DNA of 64,000 nt from Alphaproteobacteria bacterium. Its GTDB lineage: Bacteria > Pseudomonadota > Alphaproteobacteria > SP197. The position numbers were made by a program, and so were the translations under genes. The notes under the pieces were generated by a model, which was not told the DNA's origin, did no database searches, and saw only the letters and a list, made by a program, of their open reading frames with translations. Of the stretch, positions 14,119 through 29,700 are shown in pieces (positions within the stretch are counted from its first letter, which is position 1; each line of letters starts with the position of its first letter). The stretch is from the NCBI GenBank assembly GCA_964291415.2, contig OZ219918.1, forward strand, positions 448,001-512,000, given 5' to 3'.

Positions 14119-14985
14119 TCAGAGGATCTCCATCGGTGCCTGGGGTACCTCCTTCCAGAAATCGGGGTCGTGACCGGGGAATATTCGGGCGCCCCTGGCT
14201 CGCATTCGGCGCAGAAGCAGCAGCGAGTCCAGCATCTGCGAACGATCGTGGACCAGCTTCGGCAAATGAAGTTCCTCCAGGGTCTGACGGAAGTAGCAAG
14301 CGTCTGCCGCGAGCACGATGTCACCCGCTTCCAGACGAACCATGAGCGACTGGTGACCGGGAGTGTGACCGAAGGTAGGGATCGTCACCACAGTGCCATC
14401 GCCGAAGACATCATGCTCCCCGTGGACCTGGTGAACCAGGTGACCGTGGTCGTAGTCCTGCAGGTTGTAGGCATTGGCTTCCATAAGTTCGGGCGTATGG
14501 CCTGCCTCCCATTCCCTTTGCTGGATAATGACCTTGGCGTTGGGGATGAGTTCGTTGCCGCCGGAATGATCGAAGTGCAGGTGGCTGTTCACAACGTACG
14601 CAATCTGTTTGGGATCGATCTCGAGCTGATTGAGGCGCGAAGCGATGTCCTCACCGGGCCGGAAGTGAATGTCGAAGAACTTCGCCAGAGCACCGATACG
14701 GCCATGTGGGTCGTGTCCACTTTCGGGATGCAGGCCAGTGTCGAACAGAACATATCCTTTGGGGTGCTGGATCAGGTAGGTCGGGATGGGAAAGCGGATC
14801 CGACCCGACTCGCGTGCAAGCATCATGGAGACGTCAGCGCTGAGCCAGCCGCAGGTCATCGCATAGAGCTTGACAGCGGACGAATGACTCGACGAGCGCG
14901 CAACTGCGGTCGAGCGGGCCCCCTTCAGCGTCTCCCACCAGGCCTGGTTGCGCTCCAGGGCGAGCGCGCTCTCACGTGGGTCCAT
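14119..14985 (-). CDS. N-acyl-homoserine lactonase family metallo-beta-lactamase-fold hydrolase
   Basis: LFDTG, SHLHFDHSGG (HxHxDH), GHTPGHQS, DACY as in the AiiA/AttM family. Confidence 0.85.
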   Translation of the reverse strand: MDPRESALALERNQAWWETLKGARSTAVARSSSHSSAVKLYAMTCGWLSADVSMMLARESGRIRFPIPTYLIQHPKGYVLFDTGLHPESGHDPHGRIGALAKFFDIHFRPGEDIASRLNQLEIDPKQIAYVVNSHLHFDHSGGNELIPNAKVIIQQREWEAGHTPELMEANAYNLQDYDHGHLVHQVHGEHDVFGDGTVVTIPTFGHTPGHQSLMVRLEAGDIVLAADACYFRQTLEELHLPKLVHDRSQMLDSLLLLRRMRARGARIFPGHDPDFWKEVPQAPMEIL

Positions 14986-17002
14986 GGCGCGTTCCGCTTG
15001 TTGTCATAGTGTCTATCCCGTCCGCGGCGCGGGGAATTCCGCCGGTCGCTGCCGAGTCCTCGGTGAGCGCAACAACCTTCTTGGTCGTCGAGGTCGAGAG
15101 TTCCATCCTGTAAGCGAGAAGCCAAATGAGAAGAACGCCCAGCCCCCACCATAAAAGCTGCCAGGCCCAGATGGAGGGCATCCGGAAATCCCAGCCCCCG
15201 TAGCCTGTGTCCGGCGCGCCAAACAGATAGTTGCCAATAACGATGCATGGCCCGACCGCGAAGAACAACCAAATCATCGTTGCGACCCAGGCGAAGGTGA
15301 CGAAGCGCCGCCTTCGCGCGGAGAGGCCGGCGTACTCCGCCAGGAAGCGGTGAATGCGGTAGCGACCCTCTGCACCGTCATCATCGCGTGTCAGGACCGA
15401 ACCAAGAATGCAGACAAGAAGATTGGCGACGAGACCCCAGGCAGCGGCATGGATGGTCCAGGGCCATTGACCCCAGGGCAGTGTGCCGCGAGTGAGCGCC
15501 TGTCCCAGCGGATCGGTCAGAACTACGACAATGGAGCCCACCACAATGCCGGCCGCAACGCCTTGCCGGGTGAACCAGCGGACCCACGCGACGCCCAGCA
15601 GCGCGGGCCAGAGCTGCACAGCGAGCGCCAGAGCCAGCCCGCCGAGCACGACCATGCCGTCGCGCTCGAGAGTTGCCATGAGAAGCGCGGCGACCGTGGC
15701 CAGCAGAGTCGCCACCCGGGCGAAGCGTTTCTGGAGCCGATCGTCGGCATGGGGATTGAAAAAGCGCATGTAGAGATCACGGGTGACGAGTGCGCCGGCA
15801 CTCGCCATGTAGGCGCCGCCTGCGGCCTTGATTGCGGCGATCATGCATACGGTCACGATGCCGAGAAGCCAGGGAGCAGACGCGCCGACAAGGTCGATCA
15901 GGTTCGCGACCAGCCTACCCTCCTCGCCGTTGTCGAGCGGTGGAAGAACGCGTTTCAGTTCCAGGCCTGCGGCGTTGACCTCCGGACTCGCACCTAGCAA
16001 AAGCCCGCCGAGACCCTGCAGTGTGACGAAAACGAAGAGAAGCACTCCCGCCGCACATGCCGACGCCCAGACCTGCTGCGGTGCGAAGGCGCCAGGATCC
16101 CGGCTGGCGAAGGCCCACATGGAGAACGCCGGTGATGCCTGGATGCCCATCAGGGCGACCATGAAGCTCATCACCATGAGACTGGTCCAGGGACCTCCCT
16201 GGGGCACCTCCTTGTTGAGCCCGTCGCTCCATTGCACCACGCCAGGTGTGGCGAACAACCCGTTGAAGTCGCCACCGCCATAGCCCAGTGTCGTTCCCCA
16301 TGGGCCTGTGGGTGTGCTTGCGATCACAGCCAAAGCCCTGTTGAGCGGGTCGAATCCGCCCACGAGATCAAGCGTCACAAGCCCCAGGATGCTGACGCCG
16401 ACAGCGATCAGCAGAGTTTGCAGTGTCGTGACGTACGCCACGGCTCGAAGTCCGCCGAGCGTCACGTAGATGACCAGGACGACGGCAAGGGTCCACATTG
16501 CCAAGTCGCGCGAGAGCAGGCCACCGGTTACGAGACTTATGAGGCCCCCTGCGAAGCCGAACAGCATACCGAGAAACGGGACGGCAAACAGAAGGGCGAC
16601 GATGACTGTGAACACACGGATGATATCGGAGCCGTAGTAGGCCGCGAACATCTCGCCTGGTGTGACGAAACCAAATCGCTTGCCGAGTATCCACTGCCGC
16701 TTGAGGAAGATCACCCCCGTCAGCGGCACGACGACAGCAGCGAATGCGATGTAGCCTGCCTGAAGGCCATCGCGCAGAATTAACGCGGGTCCGCCGATGA
16801 AGAGCCACCCGGCGAACGAGGTCGCCGTGGCCGCCATGACGAAAACCCAGGTGTTGAGACTGCGCCCGGCGACGAAGTAGGCGCTGGCAGTCTTGGCCTC
16901 GCGCGCACCCCTGACTCCCCAGAAAACGCAGTAGCTCCAATAAAGCACGGCGAAGAGGCCAAGCCAAAGCAGTCTCGACCCGTAGAGGCCGCCGTCGGTC
17001 AC
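14972..17002 (-). CDS. sodium:solute symporter (SSS) family transporter
   Basis: YFVAGRSL..W, ATSFAGW.FIGGP, GFVTPGE, YVTLGGLRAVAY; many TMs; start overlaps the LacI stop. Confidence 0.9.
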   Translation of the reverse strand: MTDGGLYGSRLLWLGLFAVLYWSYCVFWGVRGAREAKTASAYFVAGRSLNTWVFVMAATATSFAGWLFIGGPALILRDGLQAGYIAFAAVVVPLTGVIFLKRQWILGKRFGFVTPGEMFAAYYGSDIIRVFTVIVALLFAVPFLGMLFGFAGGLISLVTGGLLSRDLAMWTLAVVLVIYVTLGGLRAVAYVTTLQTLLIAVGVSILGLVTLDLVGGFDPLNRALAVIASTPTGPWGTTLGYGGGDFNGLFATPGVVQWSDGLNKEVPQGGPWTSLMVMSFMVALMGIQASPAFSMWAFASRDPGAFAPQQVWASACAAGVLLFVFVTLQGLGGLLLGASPEVNAAGLELKRVLPPLDNGEEGRLVANLIDLVGASAPWLLGIVTVCMIAAIKAAGGAYMASAGALVTRDLYMRFFNPHADDRLQKRFARVATLLATVAALLMATLERDGMVVLGGLALALAVQLWPALLGVAWVRWFTRQGVAAGIVVGSIVVVLTDPLGQALTRGTLPWGQWPWTIHAAAWGLVANLLVCILGSVLTRDDDGAEGRYRIHRFLAEYAGLSARRRRFVTFAWVATMIWLFFAVGPCIVIGNYLFGAPDTGYGGWDFRMPSIWAWQLLWWGLGVLLIWLLAYRMELSTSTTKKVVALTEDSAATGGIPRAADGIDTMTTSGTRHGPT

Positions 17003-18051
17003 CGGACCATCGCCCCCGCACGCCGGTCGCGATGCGTGTTGCGCGGGATCATTTCGCCTGCAATAGAGCGGTGAACAGGTGCCATGTCGGGATTGTCGTC
17101 GATTTCGCGGATCAACCTTACGGTCTCGGCCGCCATCCGCCGCATCGGATGACGATAGGTGGTCAGCGCATGGGAAGGCCAGCCAGCCATGGCAACGTCA
17201 TCGAATCCGACGACGGAGATGTCACGGGGTACGTCGCGCTTCAGTCCGTGACGCAGTGCATCAACTGTGCCAAAGGCGACGATGTCGTTGGCGCAGAATA
17301 TTGCGTCCAGATCGGGGACGGCGCGGATCAGGCGACAGGCCGCTGCATATCCGTCCTCGTAGGAGAACACCTCGGGAAGGTTGTCCCTGACGATCGTGAG
17401 GCCCGCCTCCGCGCAGCGCTCGACGAAGCCGCTGCCGCGGTCGATCGAGGTTGTCGCGTCGGGCGTACCGGCAATGTAGGCCATGTTGCGGTGGCCGGTT
17501 TCGATGAGGAACTCGGCGATCTCGCGACCGCCCCGCCTGTTGTCGCAGGTCACCGCAAAGGTCTCGGTTTCGGGAATATAGCGGTTGAAGAAGATCAGGT
17601 TGGTTCCGGTATCGATTGTCGCCATGGTGCGCTGGAACGAGACTGTTGCGGTCATGAGGATGATGTACTCGGGCTGATACAGCATGCCCTGTGGCAGCAC
17701 CTCGTCGGTCGTCTTTCCCTCGGGGACGTGAAACAGCATGACTCGGAGGCCGTGTTTTTGAAGTTCGCCGGTCAGGATCGCCATGACCTCTGGAAAGAAC
17801 GGGTTGAAGACGTCCGAGATGAAGATGCTGACGATGCGGGTCTTCTGGGTGATCAGGCTTCGAGCGAAGGGGTTGGGCTGGTATCCCATCGCCTTGGCGC
17901 GTGCGAGGATACGGTCGCGAGTATCCGGGGCGATCTGAGAGTCGGGCGAGAACGCACGCGAGACTGTCGAAATCGACACACCGAGTTCCTCGGCGACGTG
18001 CCGCGCCGCTACCGTCCTGCCGGCTGACTTTGGTTTTCCGGTATTGTCCAT
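16999..18051 (-). CDS. LacI-family transcriptional regulator
   Basis: HTH VAEELGVSISTVSRA, hinge YQPNPFARSL, FCANDIVA, ISVVGFDD. Confidence 0.95.
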   Translation of the reverse strand: MDNTGKPKSAGRTVAARHVAEELGVSISTVSRAFSPDSQIAPDTRDRILARAKAMGYQPNPFARSLITQKTRIVSIFISDVFNPFFPEVMAILTGELQKHGLRVMLFHVPEGKTTDEVLPQGMLYQPEYIILMTATVSFQRTMATIDTGTNLIFFNRYIPETETFAVTCDNRRGGREIAEFLIETGHRNMAYIAGTPDATTSIDRGSGFVERCAEAGLTIVRDNLPEVFSYEDGYAAACRLIRAVPDLDAIFCANDIVAFGTVDALRHGLKRDVPRDISVVGFDDVAMAGWPSHALTTYRHPMRRMAAETVRLIREIDDNPDMAPVHRSIAGEMIPRNTHRDRRAGAMVR

Positions 18052-18369: not shown

Positions 18370-19542
18370 GTGACACAACTAACGAGAACCGCGGCCGCAC
18401 TGGCCGTCAGTCTGAGTGTCGGGACGGGTGCCGCATTGGCGGAAGGTCTCGACGAATTGCCGGAAGAGATAGTCGCCCGGACCTACAGCTCGGAAATGAT
18501 CGATCCGGCCCAGCCGGTCGAGGCAAGTATCTACCGTGACTGGAAATCACCAAGCGAACCGCCCTGGACGATCGGTTACGCCAGTTCCTATGCCGGTAAC
18601 ACCTGGCGGGCGGCCGTCATGGATCGGCTGATCCAGAGCATTCTGCCCAAGTGGCAGGAACTGGGATTGGTGGACGACGTCTTTGTCACCCAGTCCAACC
18701 TGAACGATTCGGTGCAGATCCAGCAGATGCGCCAGCTTGTTGATCAGGGTGTGGACGCGATCATCGTCTGCTGCTCGAACCCGACAGCACTCAATGCAAC
18801 GGTCAAGTATGCATATGAGCGAGGTGTGCCGACCTTCTCGTTCACCGGTTACCTGACATCACCCTATGCCGTGAACTCGTCAGTGAACTATCAGCTGGCC
18901 GGTTTCGAGATCGGCAAGTGGATGGCCGAAGAGGTTGGCGGTGAAGGAAGCATCCTTGTGGTCGAGGGCATTCCTGGCACTTCCGGTTCTGACTCGCAGC
19001 ACCGCGGCGTCCTGCTCGGTCTCGAGTCATACCCCGACATCGACATTGTCGGCGAGATCGCGGGCATGTGGACAGACCAGGTCGCCCAGGGTGAGGTTCA
19101 GAAGTGGTTGTCCACCAACCCTGGCCAGCTTGACGGCATCGTCGTGCAGTCGGCTGCGGAGATGGGCGTGTTGCGGGCCCTGCAACAATCGGGCCGGGAG
19201 ATGGTTCCTGTGGCGATTGGCGGCGAGCTCGGCGCCCTTTGCTACTGGCGCAAGAACCCTGGCTACATCAGCACGACCTTCCAGGTCTGGCCTCCCGGTG
19301 ATGATTTCGAGCTGATCTGGAACATCATGATGCGGACGCTTCAGGGTCAGGGCCCGAGGGTGCAGTCAATTCTCGTGGATCCATTCGAGTTCACTTATTC
19401 GGATCTCGAGGGTGTCCTCGACGAGAACTGCGACGAGAACTCCCAGCTGTGGCTCGAGGTCGGGCCTGCGGCCTGGGGTGCCGAAGACTATCTCGACCAG
19501 TTCTTCCTGCGTCCCGCAGATCCGACCCAGTACCAGCCCTGA
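18370..19542 (+). CDS. sugar-type ABC transporter substrate-binding protein (RbsB-like)
   Basis: Signal peptide (ALA-E), GNTWR, QIQQMRQLVDQGVDAII, EGIPG; GGGAGG SD before GTG. Confidence 0.9.
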   Translation: MTQLTRTAAALAVSLSVGTGAALAEGLDELPEEIVARTYSSEMIDPAQPVEASIYRDWKSPSEPPWTIGYASSYAGNTWRAAVMDRLIQSILPKWQELGLVDDVFVTQSNLNDSVQIQQMRQLVDQGVDAIIVCCSNPTALNATVKYAYERGVPTFSFTGYLTSPYAVNSSVNYQLAGFEIGKWMAEEVGGEGSILVVEGIPGTSGSDSQHRGVLLGLESYPDIDIVGEIAGMWTDQVAQGEVQKWLSTNPGQLDGIVVQSAAEMGVLRALQQSGREMVPVAIGGELGALCYWRKNPGYISTTFQVWPPGDDFELIWNIMMRTLQGQGPRVQSILVDPFEFTYSDLEGVLDENCDENSQLWLEVGPAAWGAEDYLDQFFLRPADPTQYQP

Positions 19543-19584: not shown

Positions 19585-21402
19585 ATGCCTTCCGAAGAAA
19601 CCGTGAGTTCCCAACAGGAGCTCCCCGGCGCCGCCGACCAGATGTCGGCGGCGCCGGCTTTCGTCGATGCGGATATTGTTGTGACCAATGTGCACAAGAC
19701 GTTCGGCGTCACGCGCGCGCTCGACGGAGTTTCCTTCAGTGCACGATGCGGCGAGATTCACGCTATCGTGGGTGGCAACGGTTGCGGCAAATCAACTCTG
19801 GCCAAGGTCATTTCGGGCGTCCTTCCCATCGACAGCGGTCAGGTGTCGGTTCTGGGACATGCACCCGGCAGCCCGCGCGAAGCGCGTCTGGCAGGCATCG
19901 CGACGGTCTTCCAGGAAGTTCTGGTGGCTGACCATCTGACGGTGCTCGACAATCTGTATGTCGGCGCTGACGGTCTCTGGTCCAAATCCCTGTCGTTCCG
20001 CGAAAAGTATGCAAGGGGCGAAGCCTTGATGCGTGACCTCAGCGGGGTTGATATCGACCCTGACGAGATCGTCGGTGGCTTGTCGCTGTCGATCAAGCAG
20101 TGGATCACCATCGGCCGCGCATTGATACAGGAACCCCGCGTCCTCATCCTCGATGAGTCCTCTGCAGCCCTCGATTTCGATTCGACCGAGAAGCTCTTCG
20201 AGAAGATGCGCGAACTGCGCGACAAGGGCGCCGCCGTGCTCATCGTGACCCATCGCATTGCCGAGCTGATTCGCGTATCCGACCGCGCCACGGTGCTGCG
20301 TGACGGGCGCGACGTTGGTGTACTGGCCAAGGAGGAAGTGACCGAACAGAACCTCTTGGGCCTGATGACCGGGAGGAGCCAGTCCACCGAGAGCGACGCC
20401 ACCAACTCGGTGGCGCCGGCCCGCGACGACACCGTGATGAGTGTACGTGGGCTCAAGGTTTGGGAAGGCAGCAAGGGTATCGACTTCGATCTCCACCGTG
20501 GCGAGGTGGTGGGTGTCGCCGGACTCGACGGGCAGGGCCAGGATGAGTTCGTGCGCGTGCTCGCCGGCGTCCAGCCCGCACTCGAAGGCGTACCCCTGGT
20601 GCGCAGTGGGCCCGGCAATCTGGCCGAGCTTCACGGACTTGAGGACGCTGATCGATTCCGTGTCGCCTACGTCTCGGGCGATCGCAAGCAGGAGGGAATC
20701 TTCCCCAACCTCTCGGTTTTCGAGAACCTTGCAATCGCGCTCTATCCCAGGGAACTGAAGACGCGCTTCGGCAATGTTATCGACTGGCCTTCACTGGCCA
20801 GCGTGTTCGAAAACTGGCGCCAGAAGCTCTCCATCAAGATCGGTTTGGCGTCCGACAAGGTCACATCGCTGTCGGGCGGCAATCAGCAGAAGGTGCTGAT
20901 CGGTCGCGCGATGGCCCTCAACCCGAGAATCCTTGTGCTCAACGACCCGGCGCGCGGCATCGACGTTGAGGCCAAGCGCGAACTTTATGATCATCTGCGC
21001 GACTTTGCCGCCCGAGGCGAATCCGTGGTCTTCATGTCGAGCGAACTTGAGGAGTTCATTGGACTTTGCACGCGCGTGATCGTGTTCCGTCATGGCGAGA
21101 TCTTCGACGCGTTCGCTGGCGACGACATCGAGCCGGCGCGCCTCCTCGAGGCCATGTTCGGCCAGACCTCCGGTCGTGGGGCCCGCCTTGCCGCGGGCGC
21201 GGATTCGGGACCAGCCGTTGTGGACAGTGATCCTGTGCCAGAGTCCGAGCGGGAAGCGCCGCGCAGGCAACATCGACCTCGGCCAGATGCAATCCGGATC
21301 ATTGACTTCGATGCCGAACGCAGGGAGCACCGCAGTCAGGGTGCAGTGGACACTCGGCAACCTGCGGAAAAGCGCATGAAGATAGTCTATTCGGACGGCT
21401 GA
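19585..21402 (+). CDS. CUT2 sugar ABC ATPase (two NBDs) with a disordered, motif-bearing C-terminal tail
   Basis: Walker A GGNGCGKS, ILDES, VTH; second NBD GLDGQGQ, LSGGNQQK, LNDP; about 80 extra residues after LLEAMFG; start uncertain (19585/19642). Confidence 0.9.
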   Translation: MPSEETVSSQQELPGAADQMSAAPAFVDADIVVTNVHKTFGVTRALDGVSFSARCGEIHAIVGGNGCGKSTLAKVISGVLPIDSGQVSVLGHAPGSPREARLAGIATVFQEVLVADHLTVLDNLYVGADGLWSKSLSFREKYARGEALMRDLSGVDIDPDEIVGGLSLSIKQWITIGRALIQEPRVLILDESSAALDFDSTEKLFEKMRELRDKGAAVLIVTHRIAELIRVSDRATVLRDGRDVGVLAKEEVTEQNLLGLMTGRSQSTESDATNSVAPARDDTVMSVRGLKVWEGSKGIDFDLHRGEVVGVAGLDGQGQDEFVRVLAGVQPALEGVPLVRSGPGNLAELHGLEDADRFRVAYVSGDRKQEGIFPNLSVFENLAIALYPRELKTRFGNVIDWPSLASVFENWRQKLSIKIGLASDKVTSLSGGNQQKVLIGRAMALNPRILVLNDPARGIDVEAKRELYDHLRDFAARGESVVFMSSELEEFIGLCTRVIVFRHGEIFDAFAGDDIEPARLLEAMFGQTSGRGARLAAGADSGPAVVDSDPVPESEREAPRRQHRPRPDAIRIIDFDAERREHRSQGAVDTRQPAEKRMKIVYSDG

Positions 21403-21413
21403 GGGCGGGAGCG

Positions 21414-21770
21414 ATGGAAATGAAGCGCATGAAGATCGTGGAGTTTGATGACGAGGGAAGGCCGGTCGAACGGCAGGGACCGACTGCATCTCCGCGCGTG
21501 ACGTCGGAATGCAGCGGGCCGGTCAGGATCGTGGCCTTTGGTGATGAACCCGAGGACAACCTCGGCGTGGAGACTGCACCGGACGCGCCGAAGATAAAGA
21601 TCAGGGAGTTTGATGGCGCTGGCGCGCCGAGACCGGCGGGTGAGCCAATGCGCTTTCGTATCCCGTCGGAAAAGAGCATCAGGGTTGTCGAGTTCGATGA
21701 CGACGGCAAGCCCAGGCGGCGCGAGAATGGTTCGGGTGCGCGTGGCATCAAGATTGTCGAGTTTGACTGA
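21414..21770 (+). CDS. small protein of five [IMV][KR][IV]xxF[DG] repeats; may be the frameshifted tail of the ATPase
   Basis: MKIVEFD, VRIVAFG, IKIREFD, IRVVEFD, IKIVEFD-stop; GGGAG lies 8 nt before the ATG at 21420. Confidence 0.7.
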   Translation: MEMKRMKIVEFDDEGRPVERQGPTASPRVTSECSGPVRIVAFGDEPEDNLGVETAPDAPKIKIREFDGAGAPRPAGEPMRFRIPSEKSIRVVEFDDDGKPRRRENGSGARGIKIVEFD

Positions 21771-25513: not shown

Positions 25514-26236
25514 ATGAGTGAGATGCTGCAACCAAATGACATCGTCGGCATGTCATTCTGGCTCATGACCCTCGCCATGGCGGGTGCGGCAGCATTCTTC
25601 CTGCTGGAGCGTCGTCGCGTGGAGCGCCGCTGGCAGGCGGCGCTGACCACGCTCGGCGTCGCCATGCTGGTCTCGGCACTGAGCTATGTGAATCTCGCGG
25701 GCGTCTGGGCAGGCAAGGGCGAAGTGTCGACGATTTACCGTTTCGCCGAGTGGCAGCTGACGGTGCCGCTCCTTACAGTGACCTTCTACCTGGTGCTGTG
25801 TGCGGTGACGAAGGTTCCAGCAGCATTGTTCTGGCGCCTTCTGGTGGCCTCGGGTGTACTCACGGCTGCGGGTTACCTCGGTTCGGCGGGCTTCGTCAGC
25901 CCAACACTGGGCTTCCTCGTTGCGCTCGCCGGCGGTCTCTACATCCTGGGCGAAATCTACCTTGGCGAGGCGGGAAGGCTCAATGCCAACAGCGGCAATC
26001 AGAAGGCCCAGACCGCGTTCAGCGCGATGCGCCTTATCGCAACCATCGGCTGGGCGATCTATCCGCTGGGCTACTTCATGGAGTACCTGGGCGGCGGCGT
26101 CGACAATGAAGCGATCAATCTGATCTACAACCTCGCTGATTTTCTCAACAAGCTCGCATTTGGCCTCATCGTCTGGCAGGCCGCGGCGAACGACAGGGAA
26201 GCGGACGGAAATCGCTCGCCGCTGTCAGGCGCATGA
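25514..26236 (+). CDS. proteorhodopsin-like microbial rhodopsin, flotillin-associated type, ETT motif
   Basis: Seven hydrophobic segments; VGMSFW, helix C YRFAEWQLTVPLLTVTFY, helix F GWAIYPLGY, helix G IYNLADFLNK with retinal Lys213. Confidence 0.93.
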   Translation: MSEMLQPNDIVGMSFWLMTLAMAGAAAFFLLERRRVERRWQAALTTLGVAMLVSALSYVNLAGVWAGKGEVSTIYRFAEWQLTVPLLTVTFYLVLCAVTKVPAALFWRLLVASGVLTAAGYLGSAGFVSPTLGFLVALAGGLYILGEIYLGEAGRLNANSGNQKAQTAFSAMRLIATIGWAIYPLGYFMEYLGGGVDNEAINLIYNLADFLNKLAFGLIVWQAAANDREADGNRSPLSGA

Positions 26237-26297: not shown

Positions 26298-28361
26298 ATG
26301 ACCGGAGCTGACATCATCACCACGATCCTGCTTGCAGGCATCCTGATCGCGGTCATCGTCTACCTGCTGTACTGGCTGTACCGGCGCTCGTCCAAGGAAG
26401 TCGCCTTCGTGCGCACAGGCCTGGGTGGCGAAAGGGTCGTCATAACCGGTGGTGCGCTTGTGCTGCCCATCGTCCACAACGTGACGCTGGTGGGAATGAA
26501 CACGTTGCGTCTGGAGGTCAGGCGGGACGGCGATCAGGCACTCATCACCAAGAACCGGATGCGCATTGACGTGGTGGCCGAGTTCACCGTGCGCGTGCGG
26601 TCTGACCCGGAGGCCGTGTCGTTGGCAGCCCAGACGCTGGGACGGCGATCCATGAGTGCCGATGATGTCAAGGAGGTTGTCCAGGGTCGTTTCGTTGATG
26701 CCCTTGCAAGCGTTGCCGCCCGGATGACCATGGACGACATCCAGGAGAACCGTGACGTCTACATGAAGGATGTCCGGGCAATCATCGAGGAGAGCGTGGC
26801 GCGCAACGGACTGGAAATCGAGGCCGTGTCGCTCACCGGCCTCGACCAGACCAGCATCGAACGGTTCAATCCGTCAAACGCCTTTGACGCCGAAGGTCTG
26901 ACCCGACTGACCGAACAGATCGAAACACGCAAGAAGGCCAGAAATGACATAGAACAGGACACGATGGTTGCGATTCGGTCGAAGAACCTCGAGGCCGAAG
27001 TCGAGGCGCTCGAAATTGACCGCAAGAGCGAATACGCGCGGCTCGAACAGGAACGCGAGGTCGCAAAGCAGCGGGCTTTGGAGAAAGCACAGATCACGAT
27101 GGAACGGGCTGCCCGGGACCGGGAGGCTCAAGAGGCGGAGATTCGCGCCGAAGAGGAAGTCGAGATTGCCCGCATTCAGCGTGAAAAGGCCCTGGAGGCC
27201 GAGCGGTCCTTGCGTGAGACGACGCTGACGGAGGAGATCGAGGCCCGGCGCAAGCACCGCAACGACGTGGAGCGCGACACCCAGATTGCGATCCGCGCGA
27301 AGGACCGTCAGGCGGAAGTGGAGATCCTGGAGATCGAGAAGGAGATCGAATTCGCAAGGCTCGGTCAGCAAGAAGCCATTGCCGGACAGCGCGCAACGCA
27401 GATGGCCGAGATTGCCAGGCGTCAGTCGAGTGGCGAGCAGGAAGCGGAGACCGCTCGCATTGCCGCGCTGGAGGCCATTGAGCGCGCTCGCATTCTTCAG
27501 GAAAGAGCGGTGGAGTCCGAGCGCATCGCGCGCAATCAGGAAGTCGATCGCCTGGAGGTGCTGCGCCGCAAGGTTCTGCAACTCGAGGAGCAGGAGCGCG
27601 CCATTGCCATCACACGCAAGGAGAAGGACAAGGCCGAGGCGCAGGCCGAAACCGAGGAGGCCCGCGCCCGGGCCGTCGAAGCCGAGGAGAAAGTCGCCTC
27701 GGCGCGGGAGCGGGAGGCTGCTGAGCGACGCAAGCTCGTCGAACTCATCGAGGCTGCTCGTGCGGTCGAGAGCGAAGCGCTCCAGCTCACCACCATTGCC
27801 GCGGCGCAGACCAACGCAGCTGAACAGAAGGCTGCGGCCGACCGTTTCGCCACACTGTCGGAGAAGCTGCGTTACGAAGTCGATGCCGAGGGCAGGCGTG
27901 CCCTCAACGAGGCGGAGAACATCCGCACCGATGACAACCGTGAACATGCTCTGCGCATGAAGCTTCTGGAGCACATCGAGGGCATCGTGCGTGAGAGCGT
28001 CAAGCCGCTGGAGAACATCGACTCCATCAAGATCCTTCAGGTCGACGGCGTACCGGGCGTCAACAGTCCGTCGGACGTTGGCCGCGGCGGAGCCGGTTCC
28101 GGTGATCCCGCCTCTGGTGGGGGCAGCATGACCGACCGCATCGTGAATTCGGCCATGAAGTATCGCACTCAGGCGGCATTCGTAGACGGCTTGATGAAGG
28201 ACCTGGGACTGCCGATGGAGCACCTCGGCAGCGCGGGTGGCCTGTCCTTCCGCAACTTTGCTGAAGCACCTCCCGAGGATGTCGCGGACGGTAAGCCGGG
28301 TGGAGACCATACCGACGACGATAACGTCGAGGACAGCGGGCCATCAGACGACGACAAATAG
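26298..28361 (+). CDS. flotillin / SPFH (band 7) family protein
   Basis: N-terminal TM, AFVRTGLGG, LITKNRMRIDV, NAFDAEGL, long Ala/Glu coiled coil, ESVKPLENIDSIKILQV. Confidence 0.93.
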   Translation: MTGADIITTILLAGILIAVIVYLLYWLYRRSSKEVAFVRTGLGGERVVITGGALVLPIVHNVTLVGMNTLRLEVRRDGDQALITKNRMRIDVVAEFTVRVRSDPEAVSLAAQTLGRRSMSADDVKEVVQGRFVDALASVAARMTMDDIQENRDVYMKDVRAIIEESVARNGLEIEAVSLTGLDQTSIERFNPSNAFDAEGLTRLTEQIETRKKARNDIEQDTMVAIRSKNLEAEVEALEIDRKSEYARLEQEREVAKQRALEKAQITMERAARDREAQEAEIRAEEEVEIARIQREKALEAERSLRETTLTEEIEARRKHRNDVERDTQIAIRAKDRQAEVEILEIEKEIEFARLGQQEAIAGQRATQMAEIARRQSSGEQEAETARIAALEAIERARILQERAVESERIARNQEVDRLEVLRRKVLQLEEQERAIAITRKEKDKAEAQAETEEARARAVEAEEKVASAREREAAERRKLVELIEAARAVESEALQLTTIAAAQTNAAEQKAAADRFATLSEKLRYEVDAEGRRALNEAENIRTDDNREHALRMKLLEHIEGIVRESVKPLENIDSIKILQVDGVPGVNSPSDVGRGGAGSGDPASGGGSMTDRIVNSAMKYRTQAAFVDGLMKDLGLPMEHLGSAGGLSFRNFAEAPPEDVADGKPGGDHTDDDNVEDSGPSDDDK

Positions 28362-28848: not shown

Positions 28849-29700
28849 ATGGTCAAGCATTCTCCGGTCACCGGCCGCTACGTCACGATCGAAGTTGACG
28901 GCAACGAGTACAAAGTCTTCTACCTGCACAATGGCACCGGACAGCCGCTGATTTGTCAGCACACGGCGGGTGCTCACAATCATCAATGGCGTGGCCTTCT
29001 GGAGGACGAGGAGATCACCCGGGACTACAACGTGATTGCCTACGACCTGCCGCGTCACGGCAAGTCGGATCCGCCGCACAACAAGGAGTGGTGGAAAGAT
29101 GAGTACCGCCTGACGGCTGACCACTACGTCAACTTCATCGTCACGTTATGCGACGCACTTGAACTCAAGGAACCGATCTTCATGGGGTCGTCCTTCGGCG
29201 GCAACGTGGCGCTGCAGCTTGCGCTGAGGCGGCCGGACCGTTTCAAGGCGGTGATTCCCGTTGAGGCAGCCGACTATGCGCCTGGCTTCTTTCTCGATTG
29301 GTGGCGCCATCCGCACGCCAACGCCGCCCAGGTCTGCGCCTCGGGAGTGTGGGACTTGATGGCCCCGCAATCCCCGGACATGGACCGATGGCTCACTTGG
29401 CACTACTACACGCAGGGTTCGGAGGCCTTCAAAGGCGATCTCTACTTCTATTCGGTCGACCACGACCTGCGTGACGAGCTTGTCAACATCGACGGGAGGC
29501 GGTGCCCTGTCATCATGATGACGGGGACATACGATTACCTGACGCCCCCCGAGGCAACCGAGAATACCGCGCGCCAGATCAAGGGCGGCGTCTACATTGA
29601 AATGGAGGACATCGGGCATTTTCCCATGAGCGAGAATCATGAACTGTTCCGTGTCTATCTCAAGGAGGCGCTGCGCATCATCAGGGAGCGCAAAGGCTGA
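28849..29700 (+). CDS. alpha/beta-fold hydrolase
   Basis: QHTAG oxyanion region, DLPRHGKS, nucleophile GSSFGG, G.YDY, GHFP. Confidence 0.9.
   Translation: MVKHSPVTGRYVTIEVDGNEYKVFYLHNGTGQPLICQHTAGAHNHQWRGLLEDEEITRDYNVIAYDLPRHGKSDPPHNKEWWKDEYRLTADHYVNFIVTLCDALELKEPIFMGSSFGGNVALQLALRRPDRFKAVIPVEAADYAPGFFLDWWRHPHANAAQVCASGVWDLMAPQSPDMDRWLTWHYYTQGSEAFKGDLYFYSVDHDLRDELVNIDGRRCPVIMMTGTYDYLTPPEATENTARQIKGGVYIEMEDIGHFPMSENHELFRVYLKEALRIIRERKG

Follow-up and report, generated by a model that had tools for sequence, protein, structure and literature searches.

Flotillin-associated rhodopsins (FARs) are encoded in a gene cluster in which the rhodopsin gene lies by a flotillin gene, together with genes encoding an SCP2-like protein, an inner membrane translocator, a sodium symporter and alpha/beta hydrolases (Haro-Moreno et al., 2023; PMC10308929). 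Function was left open in that work, where "membrane microdomains" were suggested, and the accessible portion of a later preprint presents a FAR structure without an obvious contact site for flotillin (Kovalev et al., 2025; 10.1101/2025.04.29.651185). The stretch analysed here comprises positions 448,001 to 512,000 of contig OZ219918.1 (assembly GCA_964291415.2), and these 64,000 nucleotides are referred to as the window. Its gene neighbourhood is the published FAR gene cluster: the window shows a FAR-clade rhodopsin gene upstream of a flotillin gene and all the listed companions, namely genes encoding an SCP2-like protein (a weak match), a membrane translocator, a sodium symporter and an alpha/beta hydrolase. 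In contrast to the published FAR lineages, the organism is a high-GC alphaproteobacterium and not a streamlined marine lineage. The cluster of the window also contains a short peptide motif in seven copies, two in the C-terminal tail of an ATP-binding cassette (ABC) ATPase and five in an adjoining open reading frame (ORF) of 118 amino acids (aa). Across the family of proteins described below, the motif shows the consensus [IM]-K-I-[VIR]-E-F-[DG], often followed by D-[DE]-G-x-P. We propose, with moderate confidence, that it is a short strand-forming docking tag of the FAR cluster, which brings cytosolic proteins to the FAR/flotillin membrane assembly.

The seven copies lie on the + strand at 21292-21770. 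An earlier note on this DNA, made from its letters only, had listed seven copies of the motif, Pro/Gly/charged linkers of about 15-25 residues and a 14-nt direct repeat; every copy was found where that note had placed it, the linkers measure 16-24 residues and the repeat, AAGCGCATGAAGAT, is present in two copies. A search of the six frames of the window with the pattern [IMV][KR][IV]xxF[DG] shows seven matches, six of them within 21292-21767 and the seventh being an out-of-frame IRVHLFG at 19383. The copy that ends the ATPase, MKIVYSD, is imperfect, falls outside the pattern and was counted by eye. With a stricter pattern, applied in six frames to about 407 kb (the window and the loci described below), 38 matches are on target vs one off target, so the motif cluster is far above chance. 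A looser pattern gave the 262 instances from 61 proteins on which the consensus is based. In the small ORF, a five-residue lead-in precedes the first motif, and the last motif is the C-terminus of the protein. The start-to-start distances of its motifs are 31, 24, 28 and 23 residues, with linkers of 24, 17, 21 and 16 residues, and its 83 linker residues include 12 P, 11 G and 31 R/E/D/K. At the DNA level, the seven 21-nt motif copies show a mean pairwise identity of 66%, and, besides the 14-nt repeat, repetition is limited to the motif-coding DNA, which is 63-86% identical to the reference copy.

The ATPase contains 605 residues, and the NCBIfam profiles of sugar ATPases (YtfR, XylG, AraG and RbsA) stop by residue 506-532, so that about 73 residues form an add-on tail, which ends in ...PDAIRIIDFDAERREHRSQGAVDTRQPAEKRMKIVYSDG*. 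Among nine ATPase orthologues the tail linkers are variable, and I570, D574, A577, E578 and I600-V601-Y602-S603-D604 are invariant. One of the loci found by genome scan, the gammaproteobacterial L005, shows AVIDFEN, IRIVDSD and a terminal IRIVYSDE* in its ATPase tail. A database search with the tail as the sole query gave just five proteins among 421 candidates. Proteins P0063, P0071 and P0072 are ABC ATPase C-termini with four to five tail motifs, and P0074 is an AttM lactonase (NCBIfam equivalog, 438 bits vs a cut-off of 390) whose N-terminus has four motifs; arrays of the motif therefore occur in three forms, fused to an ATPase, fused to a lactonase and free. The end of the ATPase and the beginning of the small ORF have the KRMKIV segment and the 14-nt repeat in common, which suggests an origin of the free protein as a detached tail. 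The split between the two is old, because L005 also has it.

The small ORF belongs to a real and conserved gene family. Of 39 candidates from a word-based search, 13 are homologues; their alignment shows motif columns with little or no variation and diverged linkers. A profile search among 1.84 billion representatives gave 64 proteins at E<=1e-3, of which 39 reach E<=1e-10 and four E<=1e-30. Two matches of the profile search were spurious and were dropped: P0028, a eukaryotic BRCA2-type protein of 4819 aa (E 1.5e-15) that shows 15 stretches on the small-protein profile in a repeat-on-repeat match, and P0077, an unrelated repeat protein. No family was matched in Pfam (E<=0.01) or NCBIfam (E<=0.001), and a protein atlas gave no usable match. 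Family statistics were obtained on 67 proteins from P0001-P0078, leaving out, in addition to the two spurious matches, the fusions or fragments P0063, P0071, P0072 and P0074 and the ATPases P0014-P0018. The median length of these proteins is 117 aa and the median start-to-start motif spacing is 26. Five motifs are present in 35 proteins, four in 18, three in 12, and two and one motif in one protein each. The C-terminus is a motif in 57/67, and the first motif begins at residue 6 in 38/67 and at residue 1 in 23/67.

The small protein shows no stable predicted fold. An AlphaFold2 model, made from 53 rows (the window and 52 family members, with fragments and near-duplicates omitted), has a predicted local distance difference test score (pLDDT) of 67 and a predicted template modelling score (pTM) of 0.20, and contains one hairpin only (strands 29-34 and 37-42), formed by motif 2 and the segment just before it. 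The N-terminus, MEMKRMKIVEFDDE, is charged and shows no hydrophobic signal sequence, so a cytosolic location follows for the small protein and for the ATPase tail. Amyloids of the curli CsgA and FapC type have a signal peptide and imperfect repeats that fold as stacked strands. A secreted functional-amyloid repeat protein was considered and rejected, there being no signal sequence and no stacked structure in the model. Selection on the peptide is visible in the codons of four gap-free orthologues (window and L001-L003), compared in six pairs that are non-independent. Non-synonymous differences amount to 9.5% in motif codons vs 31.3% in linker codons, and synonymous differences to 15.7% and 17.9%, so that the motifs have about one-third of the amino-acid changes of the linkers at similar synonymous rates. 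Of all products of the cluster, the small protein is the one conserved least, with 75-80% identity in L001-L004 vs 89-99% for the neighbours from symporter to hydrolase, which fits conserved motifs on free linkers. The earlier note had described a disordered chain of no named family under selection on the peptide and not on the DNA. The selection and the lack of a family are borne out by these data, and the disorder agrees with a model that is predicted to be mostly unstructured.

In the loci examined, the motif is restricted to FAR clusters. A genome scan built on a six-sequence alignment found five loci, four in Alphaproteobacteria and one in Gammaproteobacteria, all in metagenome-assembled genomes; only close relatives were found because the scan patterns were narrow. 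All five loci show the gene order substrate-binding protein, ATPase, small ORF, permease, permease, rhodopsin, flotillin and hydrolase, with motifs on the ATPase tail and five motifs in the small ORF. A tblastn search of plasmids with the small protein gave no match, and a search with P0074 gave complete FAR clusters on plasmids of three cultured isolates, belonging to Martelella, Pararhizobium and Hoeflea. These plasmid clusters contain, in order, genes encoding IclR, an SCP2-like protein, the hydrolase, AttM, the binding protein, the ATPase, two permeases, a "bacteriorhodopsin", flotillin, a 141-aa membrane protein, the symporter and an iron alcohol dehydrogenase, and the Martelella cluster additionally contains a succinate-semialdehyde dehydrogenase gene. 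None of the three plasmid clusters contains the small ORF, and each shows exactly two motifs, one on the ATPase and one on AttM. The ATPase motif (IRIIEFD, IRVVEFD or IKIVEFD) lies about 10 residues ahead of the C-terminus, and the AttM frames open with MKIIEFDEKG or MKIVEFDDKG. In six frames of the whole 123-kb Hoeflea plasmid, these are the only two matches. Altogether, the FAR gene lies directly upstream of a flotillin gene of the same strand in the window, in 5/5 genome loci and in 3/3 plasmids, and the motif is on the ATPase tail in 9/9 loci with FAR, flotillin and ABC genes, 6/9 of which have the small protein. Three loci that are related but have neither FAR nor flotillin gave no motif match: Agrobacterium attKLM and one control locus each of Rhodococcus and Peribacillus, the latter two with the SCP2-like, hydrolase and aldehyde dehydrogenase genes. 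Absence of the motif from homologous loci, or its frequent occurrence in ATPases without flotillin/opsin neighbours, had been named in the earlier note as what would refute its interpretation, and the outcome (9/9 vs 0/3 loci, and 5/421 in the tail search) is in its favour. Of that interpretation, the multivalent docking motif and its link to the flotillin/rhodopsin system are upheld, and the binding partner and a role in clustering stand as candidates.

The annotated starts of the plasmid AttM genes are apparently about 55 codons too far downstream (L006 6001-6168, L009 14007-14171 and L010 13878-14042). The extended frame begins with the Met of the motif, 30-57 nt past the stop codon of the hydrolase gene, and a ribosome-binding site, GGAGGAGG, is evident upstream of it in Pararhizobium only, being less clear in Martelella and Hoeflea. 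Judging from these frames, the motif appears to be the true N-terminus of the AttM lactonase in the three plasmids. The FAR plasmid clusters sit among AttKLM-type genes of a gamma-butyrolactone/hydroxybutyrate pathway, with lactonase and iron alcohol dehydrogenase genes in 3/3, which suggests a lactone-related substrate for the importer.

The peptide shows the features of a short linear motif: it is conserved on a variable, unstructured terminal segment, and the same peptide occurs on ATPase tails, on AttM N-termini and in free arrays. Because the AttM lactonase carries the same tag, a docking tag fits better than a feature of the transporter only. The tag would sit on a flexible leash of about 45-60 residues, which is the C-terminal tail of the ATPase or, in other lineages, the N-terminus of an AttM-type lactonase, and every copy would bind one common receptor within the FAR/flotillin assembly. 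The importer and the downstream lactonase would be kept together in a flotillin microdomain. The 118-aa protein would be a free five-copy array, most likely a detached ATPase tail, and may act on the common receptor as a multivalent cross-linker or adaptor. We infer the binding itself, the co-localising role and the identity of the receptor, for which flotillin is the first candidate. The SCP2-like protein and the hydrolase are less likely receptors because the pair occurs without the motif in other phyla, and the remaining candidates are FAR, flotillin and the extended transporter. As a precedent, the consulted part of one study describes cages of SPFH proteins that enclose transporters (PMC12407830), and a bacterial flotillin is reported to hold unfolded proteins (PMC11222466).

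A possible lead to the receptor is the flotillin strand IKILQVDG. It is the best non-self match of a position matrix (192 motif instances) in the six-frame window, ahead of the next at 0.7, and the sole hhalign alignment between the small-protein and flotillin profiles pairs motif 3 with it. The strand and the motif IKIVEFD[DG] share I-K-I, a hydrophobic-polar-hydrophobic run and D-G, a likeness that is not statistically significant. I577, K578, I579, Q581, V582 and G584 are invariant in 41 aligned flotillins of the YqiK type. In solved flotillin and stomatin cages, as described in the available parts of both papers, each subunit contributes a strand that follows its cap helix to an apical parallel barrel, of 44 strands in flotillin (PMC11260169) and 16 strands in stomatin (PMC12407830). 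Mimicry of a flotillin strand by the motif is conceivable since SPFH cages have such barrels. A narrower and rather improbable version of the docking proposal is that the motif is a targeting signal for the flotillin cage, the first for any SPFH protein, which would mimic the putative cap strand IKILQVDG and join or cap the apical barrel. It is equally doubtful that the ATPase and the lactonase would in this way be held in a flotillin-bounded patch with a retinal-less rhodopsin, and that the five-copy protein, giving five barrel strands, could set or close the cage. The match of the window flotillin with solved structures is confined to the SPFH domain of flotillin-2 and the alignment leaves the cap strand unplaced; a complex prediction with four copies of flotillin residues 520-660 and the small protein, run without controls, gave a score of 0.00 and a mark of 0.32, which speaks neither for nor against binding. 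The C-terminus of the Pararhizobium flotillin (L009 21617-23281) shows ...LSKIVYTEP..., which resembles the terminal KIVYSDG of the window ATPase. At roughly the corresponding place, judged by eye, the window flotillin shows LSFRNFAEAP, the FRNF of which is at least 90% conserved in the 41 flotillins.

Several points weigh against the docking proposal. The binding partner is still putative, and since a protein that consists of the tag only brings no cargo, one can only guess that it acts as a cross-linker or competitor. The gene context is known for nine loci, four of which are close relatives (about 90% identity), and the narrow patterns of the genome scan would miss distant members. The AlphaFold2 model of the ATPase, made with nine orthologues, has a pLDDT of 41, too poor to place the tail relative to the domains. 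The likeness of the flotillin strand is weak, with a matrix score of 4.7 vs 22-35 for the true copies, and hhalign of the two family profiles gives a probability of 0.4% and an E of 0.16, which is not significant. Nor does anything tie the strand specifically to FAR clusters, as it does not vary among the 41 aligned flotillins of the YqiK type, which were taken whatever their gene context.

The most durable alternatives place the receptor of the motif within the proteins that carry it. One that we consider unlikely is that the motif copies pair with one another and the small protein serves as a hub, gathering transporters and enzymes in a patch or condensate. This would give the five-copy protein a clear hub role, and it agrees with the Pro/Gly/charged linkers, which suit a stickers-and-spacers design, with the AlphaFold2 pairing of motif 2 and its adjacent segment, and with the isolates, whose clusters contain exactly two copies on two proteins that are expected to cooperate. 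However, two isolated 7-residue strands would be unlikely to hold stably, the monomer model (pTM 0.20) shows no confident assembly of motifs, and the confinement to FAR/flotillin clusters is left unexplained. Docking of the motif on the nucleotide-binding domains of the ATPase itself, where the tail would be an autoinhibitory or trans-acting plug that regulates transport, is likewise improbable, as are the roles that would follow for the small protein, which would compete with or mimic the tail, and for the lactonase, which would be docked to the importer so that substrate can be handed over. MalK, MetN and ModC are importer ATPases regulated through C-terminal domains; the position of the small ORF, with the ATPase gene on one side and a permease gene on the other, resembles that of an accessory subunit, and arrays are fused to ATPases in P0063, P0071 and P0072. 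Against these stand the sugar-type ATPases outside these clusters, which lack the tail according to both the profile ends (506-532) and the tail search (5/421), the strict link to FAR and flotillin, which is unexplained, and an ATPase model (pLDDT 41) that is uninformative.

Two further explanations are far less probable. The small ORF has the size, the repeated core, the variable spacers and the adjoining ABC and alpha/beta hydrolase genes that a multi-core precursor of a ribosomally made, modified peptide would have, cut by the hydrolase and moved by the ABC system, but this is very hard to sustain: the motif is also found inside enzymes (ATPase tail and lactonase N-terminus), the transporter is of the importing type and works with a binding protein, no family of modifying enzymes came up when the cluster genes were scanned against Pfam, and the hydrolase and its SCP2-like partner also occur free of the motif in Rhodococcus and Peribacillus. 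That the small ORF is a decaying, functionless remnant of a longer ATPase tail split by a stop codon, as the shared 14-nt repeat and KRMKIV and the existence of fused ATPase-array forms might indicate, is hardly credible given an ORF that is intact and of equal length from Alpha- through Gammaproteobacteria and has its own ribosome-binding site, motifs under purifying selection and a terminal IVYSD invariant in 9/9 ATPase orthologues.

Features of the window and plasmid FAR clusters retrieved with the lactonase-fused array; positions are those of the window unless an accession is given.
Feature	Position or accession	Strand	Basis or remark
Metallo-beta-lactamase-fold lactonase-like gene (AttM relative), no motif	14119..14985	-	Pfam Lactamase_B; 33% identical to L009 AttM
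Sodium:solute symporter	14972..17002	-	Pfam SSF; homologue of 637-aa "hypothetical" after flotillin in L009
LacI-family regulator	16999..18051	-	Pfam LacI, Peripla_BP_3
Periplasmic substrate-binding protein of transporter	18370..19542	+	Pfam Peripla_BP_4
ABC ATPase, two nucleotide-binding domains, sugar (CUT2) type, 605 aa	19585..21402	+	Pfam ABC_tran, two stretches
ATPase C-terminal extension, residues ~529-605, flexible, two motifs	21169..21399	+	Past end of every NCBIfam ATPase profile
Tail motif 1, IRIIDFD, then AE	21292..21312	+	I[RK][IV][IV]D[FS][DGE]AE kept in 9/9 ATPases; equivalent to single tail motif of plasmid ATPases
14-nt direct repeat AAGCGCATGAAGAT, copy 1, encodes KRMKI	21370..21383	+	Repeat search, family D1
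Tail motif 2, MKIVYSDG, extreme C-terminus of ATPase	21376..21399	+	IVYSD invariant in 9/9 orthologues
Small 118-aa protein, five motifs, no signal peptide	21414..21770	+	GGGAG three bases 5' of ATG
14-nt direct repeat AAGCGCATGAAGAT, copy 2, encodes KRMKI at small-ORF start	21423..21436	+	Repeat search, family D1
Small-protein motif 1, MKIVEFD	21429..21449	+	I8, V9, E10, F11 at least 90% conserved
Small-protein motif 2, VRIVAFG	21522..21542	+	F42 invariant; predicted hairpin with preceding RVTSEC segment
Small-protein motif 3, IKIREFD	21594..21614	+	E65, F66 invariant
Small-protein motif 4, IRVVEFD	21678..21698	+	V92, F94 at least 90% conserved
Small-protein motif 5, IKIVEFD, extreme C-terminus	21747..21767	+	K113, I114, V115, E116 invariant
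Permease 1, 740 aa, C-terminal membrane extension ~400 aa	21822..24044	+	Pfam BPD_transp_2, residues 49-315 only
Permease 2, 474 aa, N-terminal extension ~150 aa	24044..25468	+	Pfam BPD_transp_2, residues 187-458
Flotillin-associated rhodopsin (FAR)	25514..26236	+	Best solved structures 9r23, 9r21, E 1e-81
Flotillin, YqiK type, N-terminal membrane helix, 687 aa	26298..28361	+	Pfam Band_7, Flot
Flotillin strand IKILQVDG, residues 577-584	28026..28049	+	Candidate mimicked element
SCP2-like protein, 129 aa	28407..28796	+	Weak Pfam SCP2 match, E 0.0067, below cut-off
Alpha/beta hydrolase	28849..29700	+	Pfam Abhydrolase_1
Martelella sp. AD-3 plasmid FAR cluster	L006, L008; NZ_CP014276.1		
Pararhizobium gei plasmid FAR cluster	L009; NZ_CP119410.1		
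Hoeflea sp. IMCC20628 plasmid FAR cluster	L010; NZ_CP011481.1		

The rhodopsin of the window matches the FAR structures 9r23 and 9r21 ahead of proteorhodopsins, which reach 1e-62. It retains the retinal lysine (DFLNK) and shows V and G where the solved retinal-less FAR has H and E, the two residues that the part of the preprint available to us names as blocking retinal (10.1101/2025.04.29.651185). With the lysine kept and V and G at the blocking positions, the window FAR may still bind retinal. It shows E at the usual counter-ion D position (AEW), giving E-T-T by our count. The solved FAR is also the best match of the Pararhizobium rhodopsin (E 5e-39), in which R replaces the retinal lysine. 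Both permeases contain large extra membrane segments: the extension of permease 1 includes a low-complexity SLSGQ/SLSGT run, and it is much shorter in the plasmid clusters, where the permease has 464 aa.

The SCP2-like protein of the window is 67% identical to the product of the gene upstream of the L009 hydrolase gene, and a gene of about 130 aa precedes the hydrolase gene in Martelella, Pararhizobium, Hoeflea, Rhodococcus and Peribacillus, like the SCP2-like gene of the window. The alpha/beta hydrolase is unusually conserved, with 93-99% identity across L001-L005, where the neighbours in L005 drop to 39-71%, and with 82% identity in Pararhizobium, 76% in Rhodococcus, 61% in Peribacillus and about 50% in haloarchaeal plasmids. 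In Rhodococcus (L011) and Peribacillus (L012), the aldehyde dehydrogenase gene follows the hydrolase gene, and these loci contain no FAR, flotillin or ABC genes. A + strand ORF at 14047-15009 matches no family and was rejected as a shadow of the minus-strand lactonase gene; it nonetheless showed 66-75% "conservation" between loci.

The FAR cluster itself is already known. The main text of the paper that described it (PMC10308929) makes no mention of an ABC ATPase, of repeats or of a small protein, the supplementary gene table, which may list the ORF as hypothetical, being excepted. The part of the FAR-structure preprint at hand (10.1101/2025.04.29.651185) contains nothing relevant on the motif or the small protein, the papers retrieved by the names of the cluster deal with neither, and a full-text literature search for the six-letter motif gave an unrelated match only. 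In the literature searched, the motif, the small-protein family, the lactonase tag and the occurrence in cultured isolates beside butyrolactone-pathway genes therefore appear to be undescribed.

The roles of FARs and of bacterial flotillin domains are open, and a tag shared by ATPase and lactonase would offer a concrete point from which to test which proteins are recruited and by what means. Should it bind the flotillin cage, the tag would amount to a first client-recognition rule for SPFH scaffolds. The plasmid clusters in cultured isolates open the system to genetics, with a candidate class of lactone-related substrates. Among cargo-targeting peptides, the closest parallels are those of protein shells, the cargo-loading peptides of encapsulins and the encapsulation peptides of microcompartments. 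As in these, the FAR motif is a short terminal peptide on a flexible linker, is carried by several unrelated enzymes and is encoded beside a large shell or cage. Unlike them, it occurs in arrays of up to five and in a free protein without cargo, and its cage is attached to the membrane, the binding to this cage being putative. With MalK, MetN and ModC, the FAR ATPase shares an extra C-terminal segment on an importer ATPase. In those proteins the segment is a folded domain, whereas the FAR ATPase tail shows no domain match and is made of variable linkers and two short conserved motifs.

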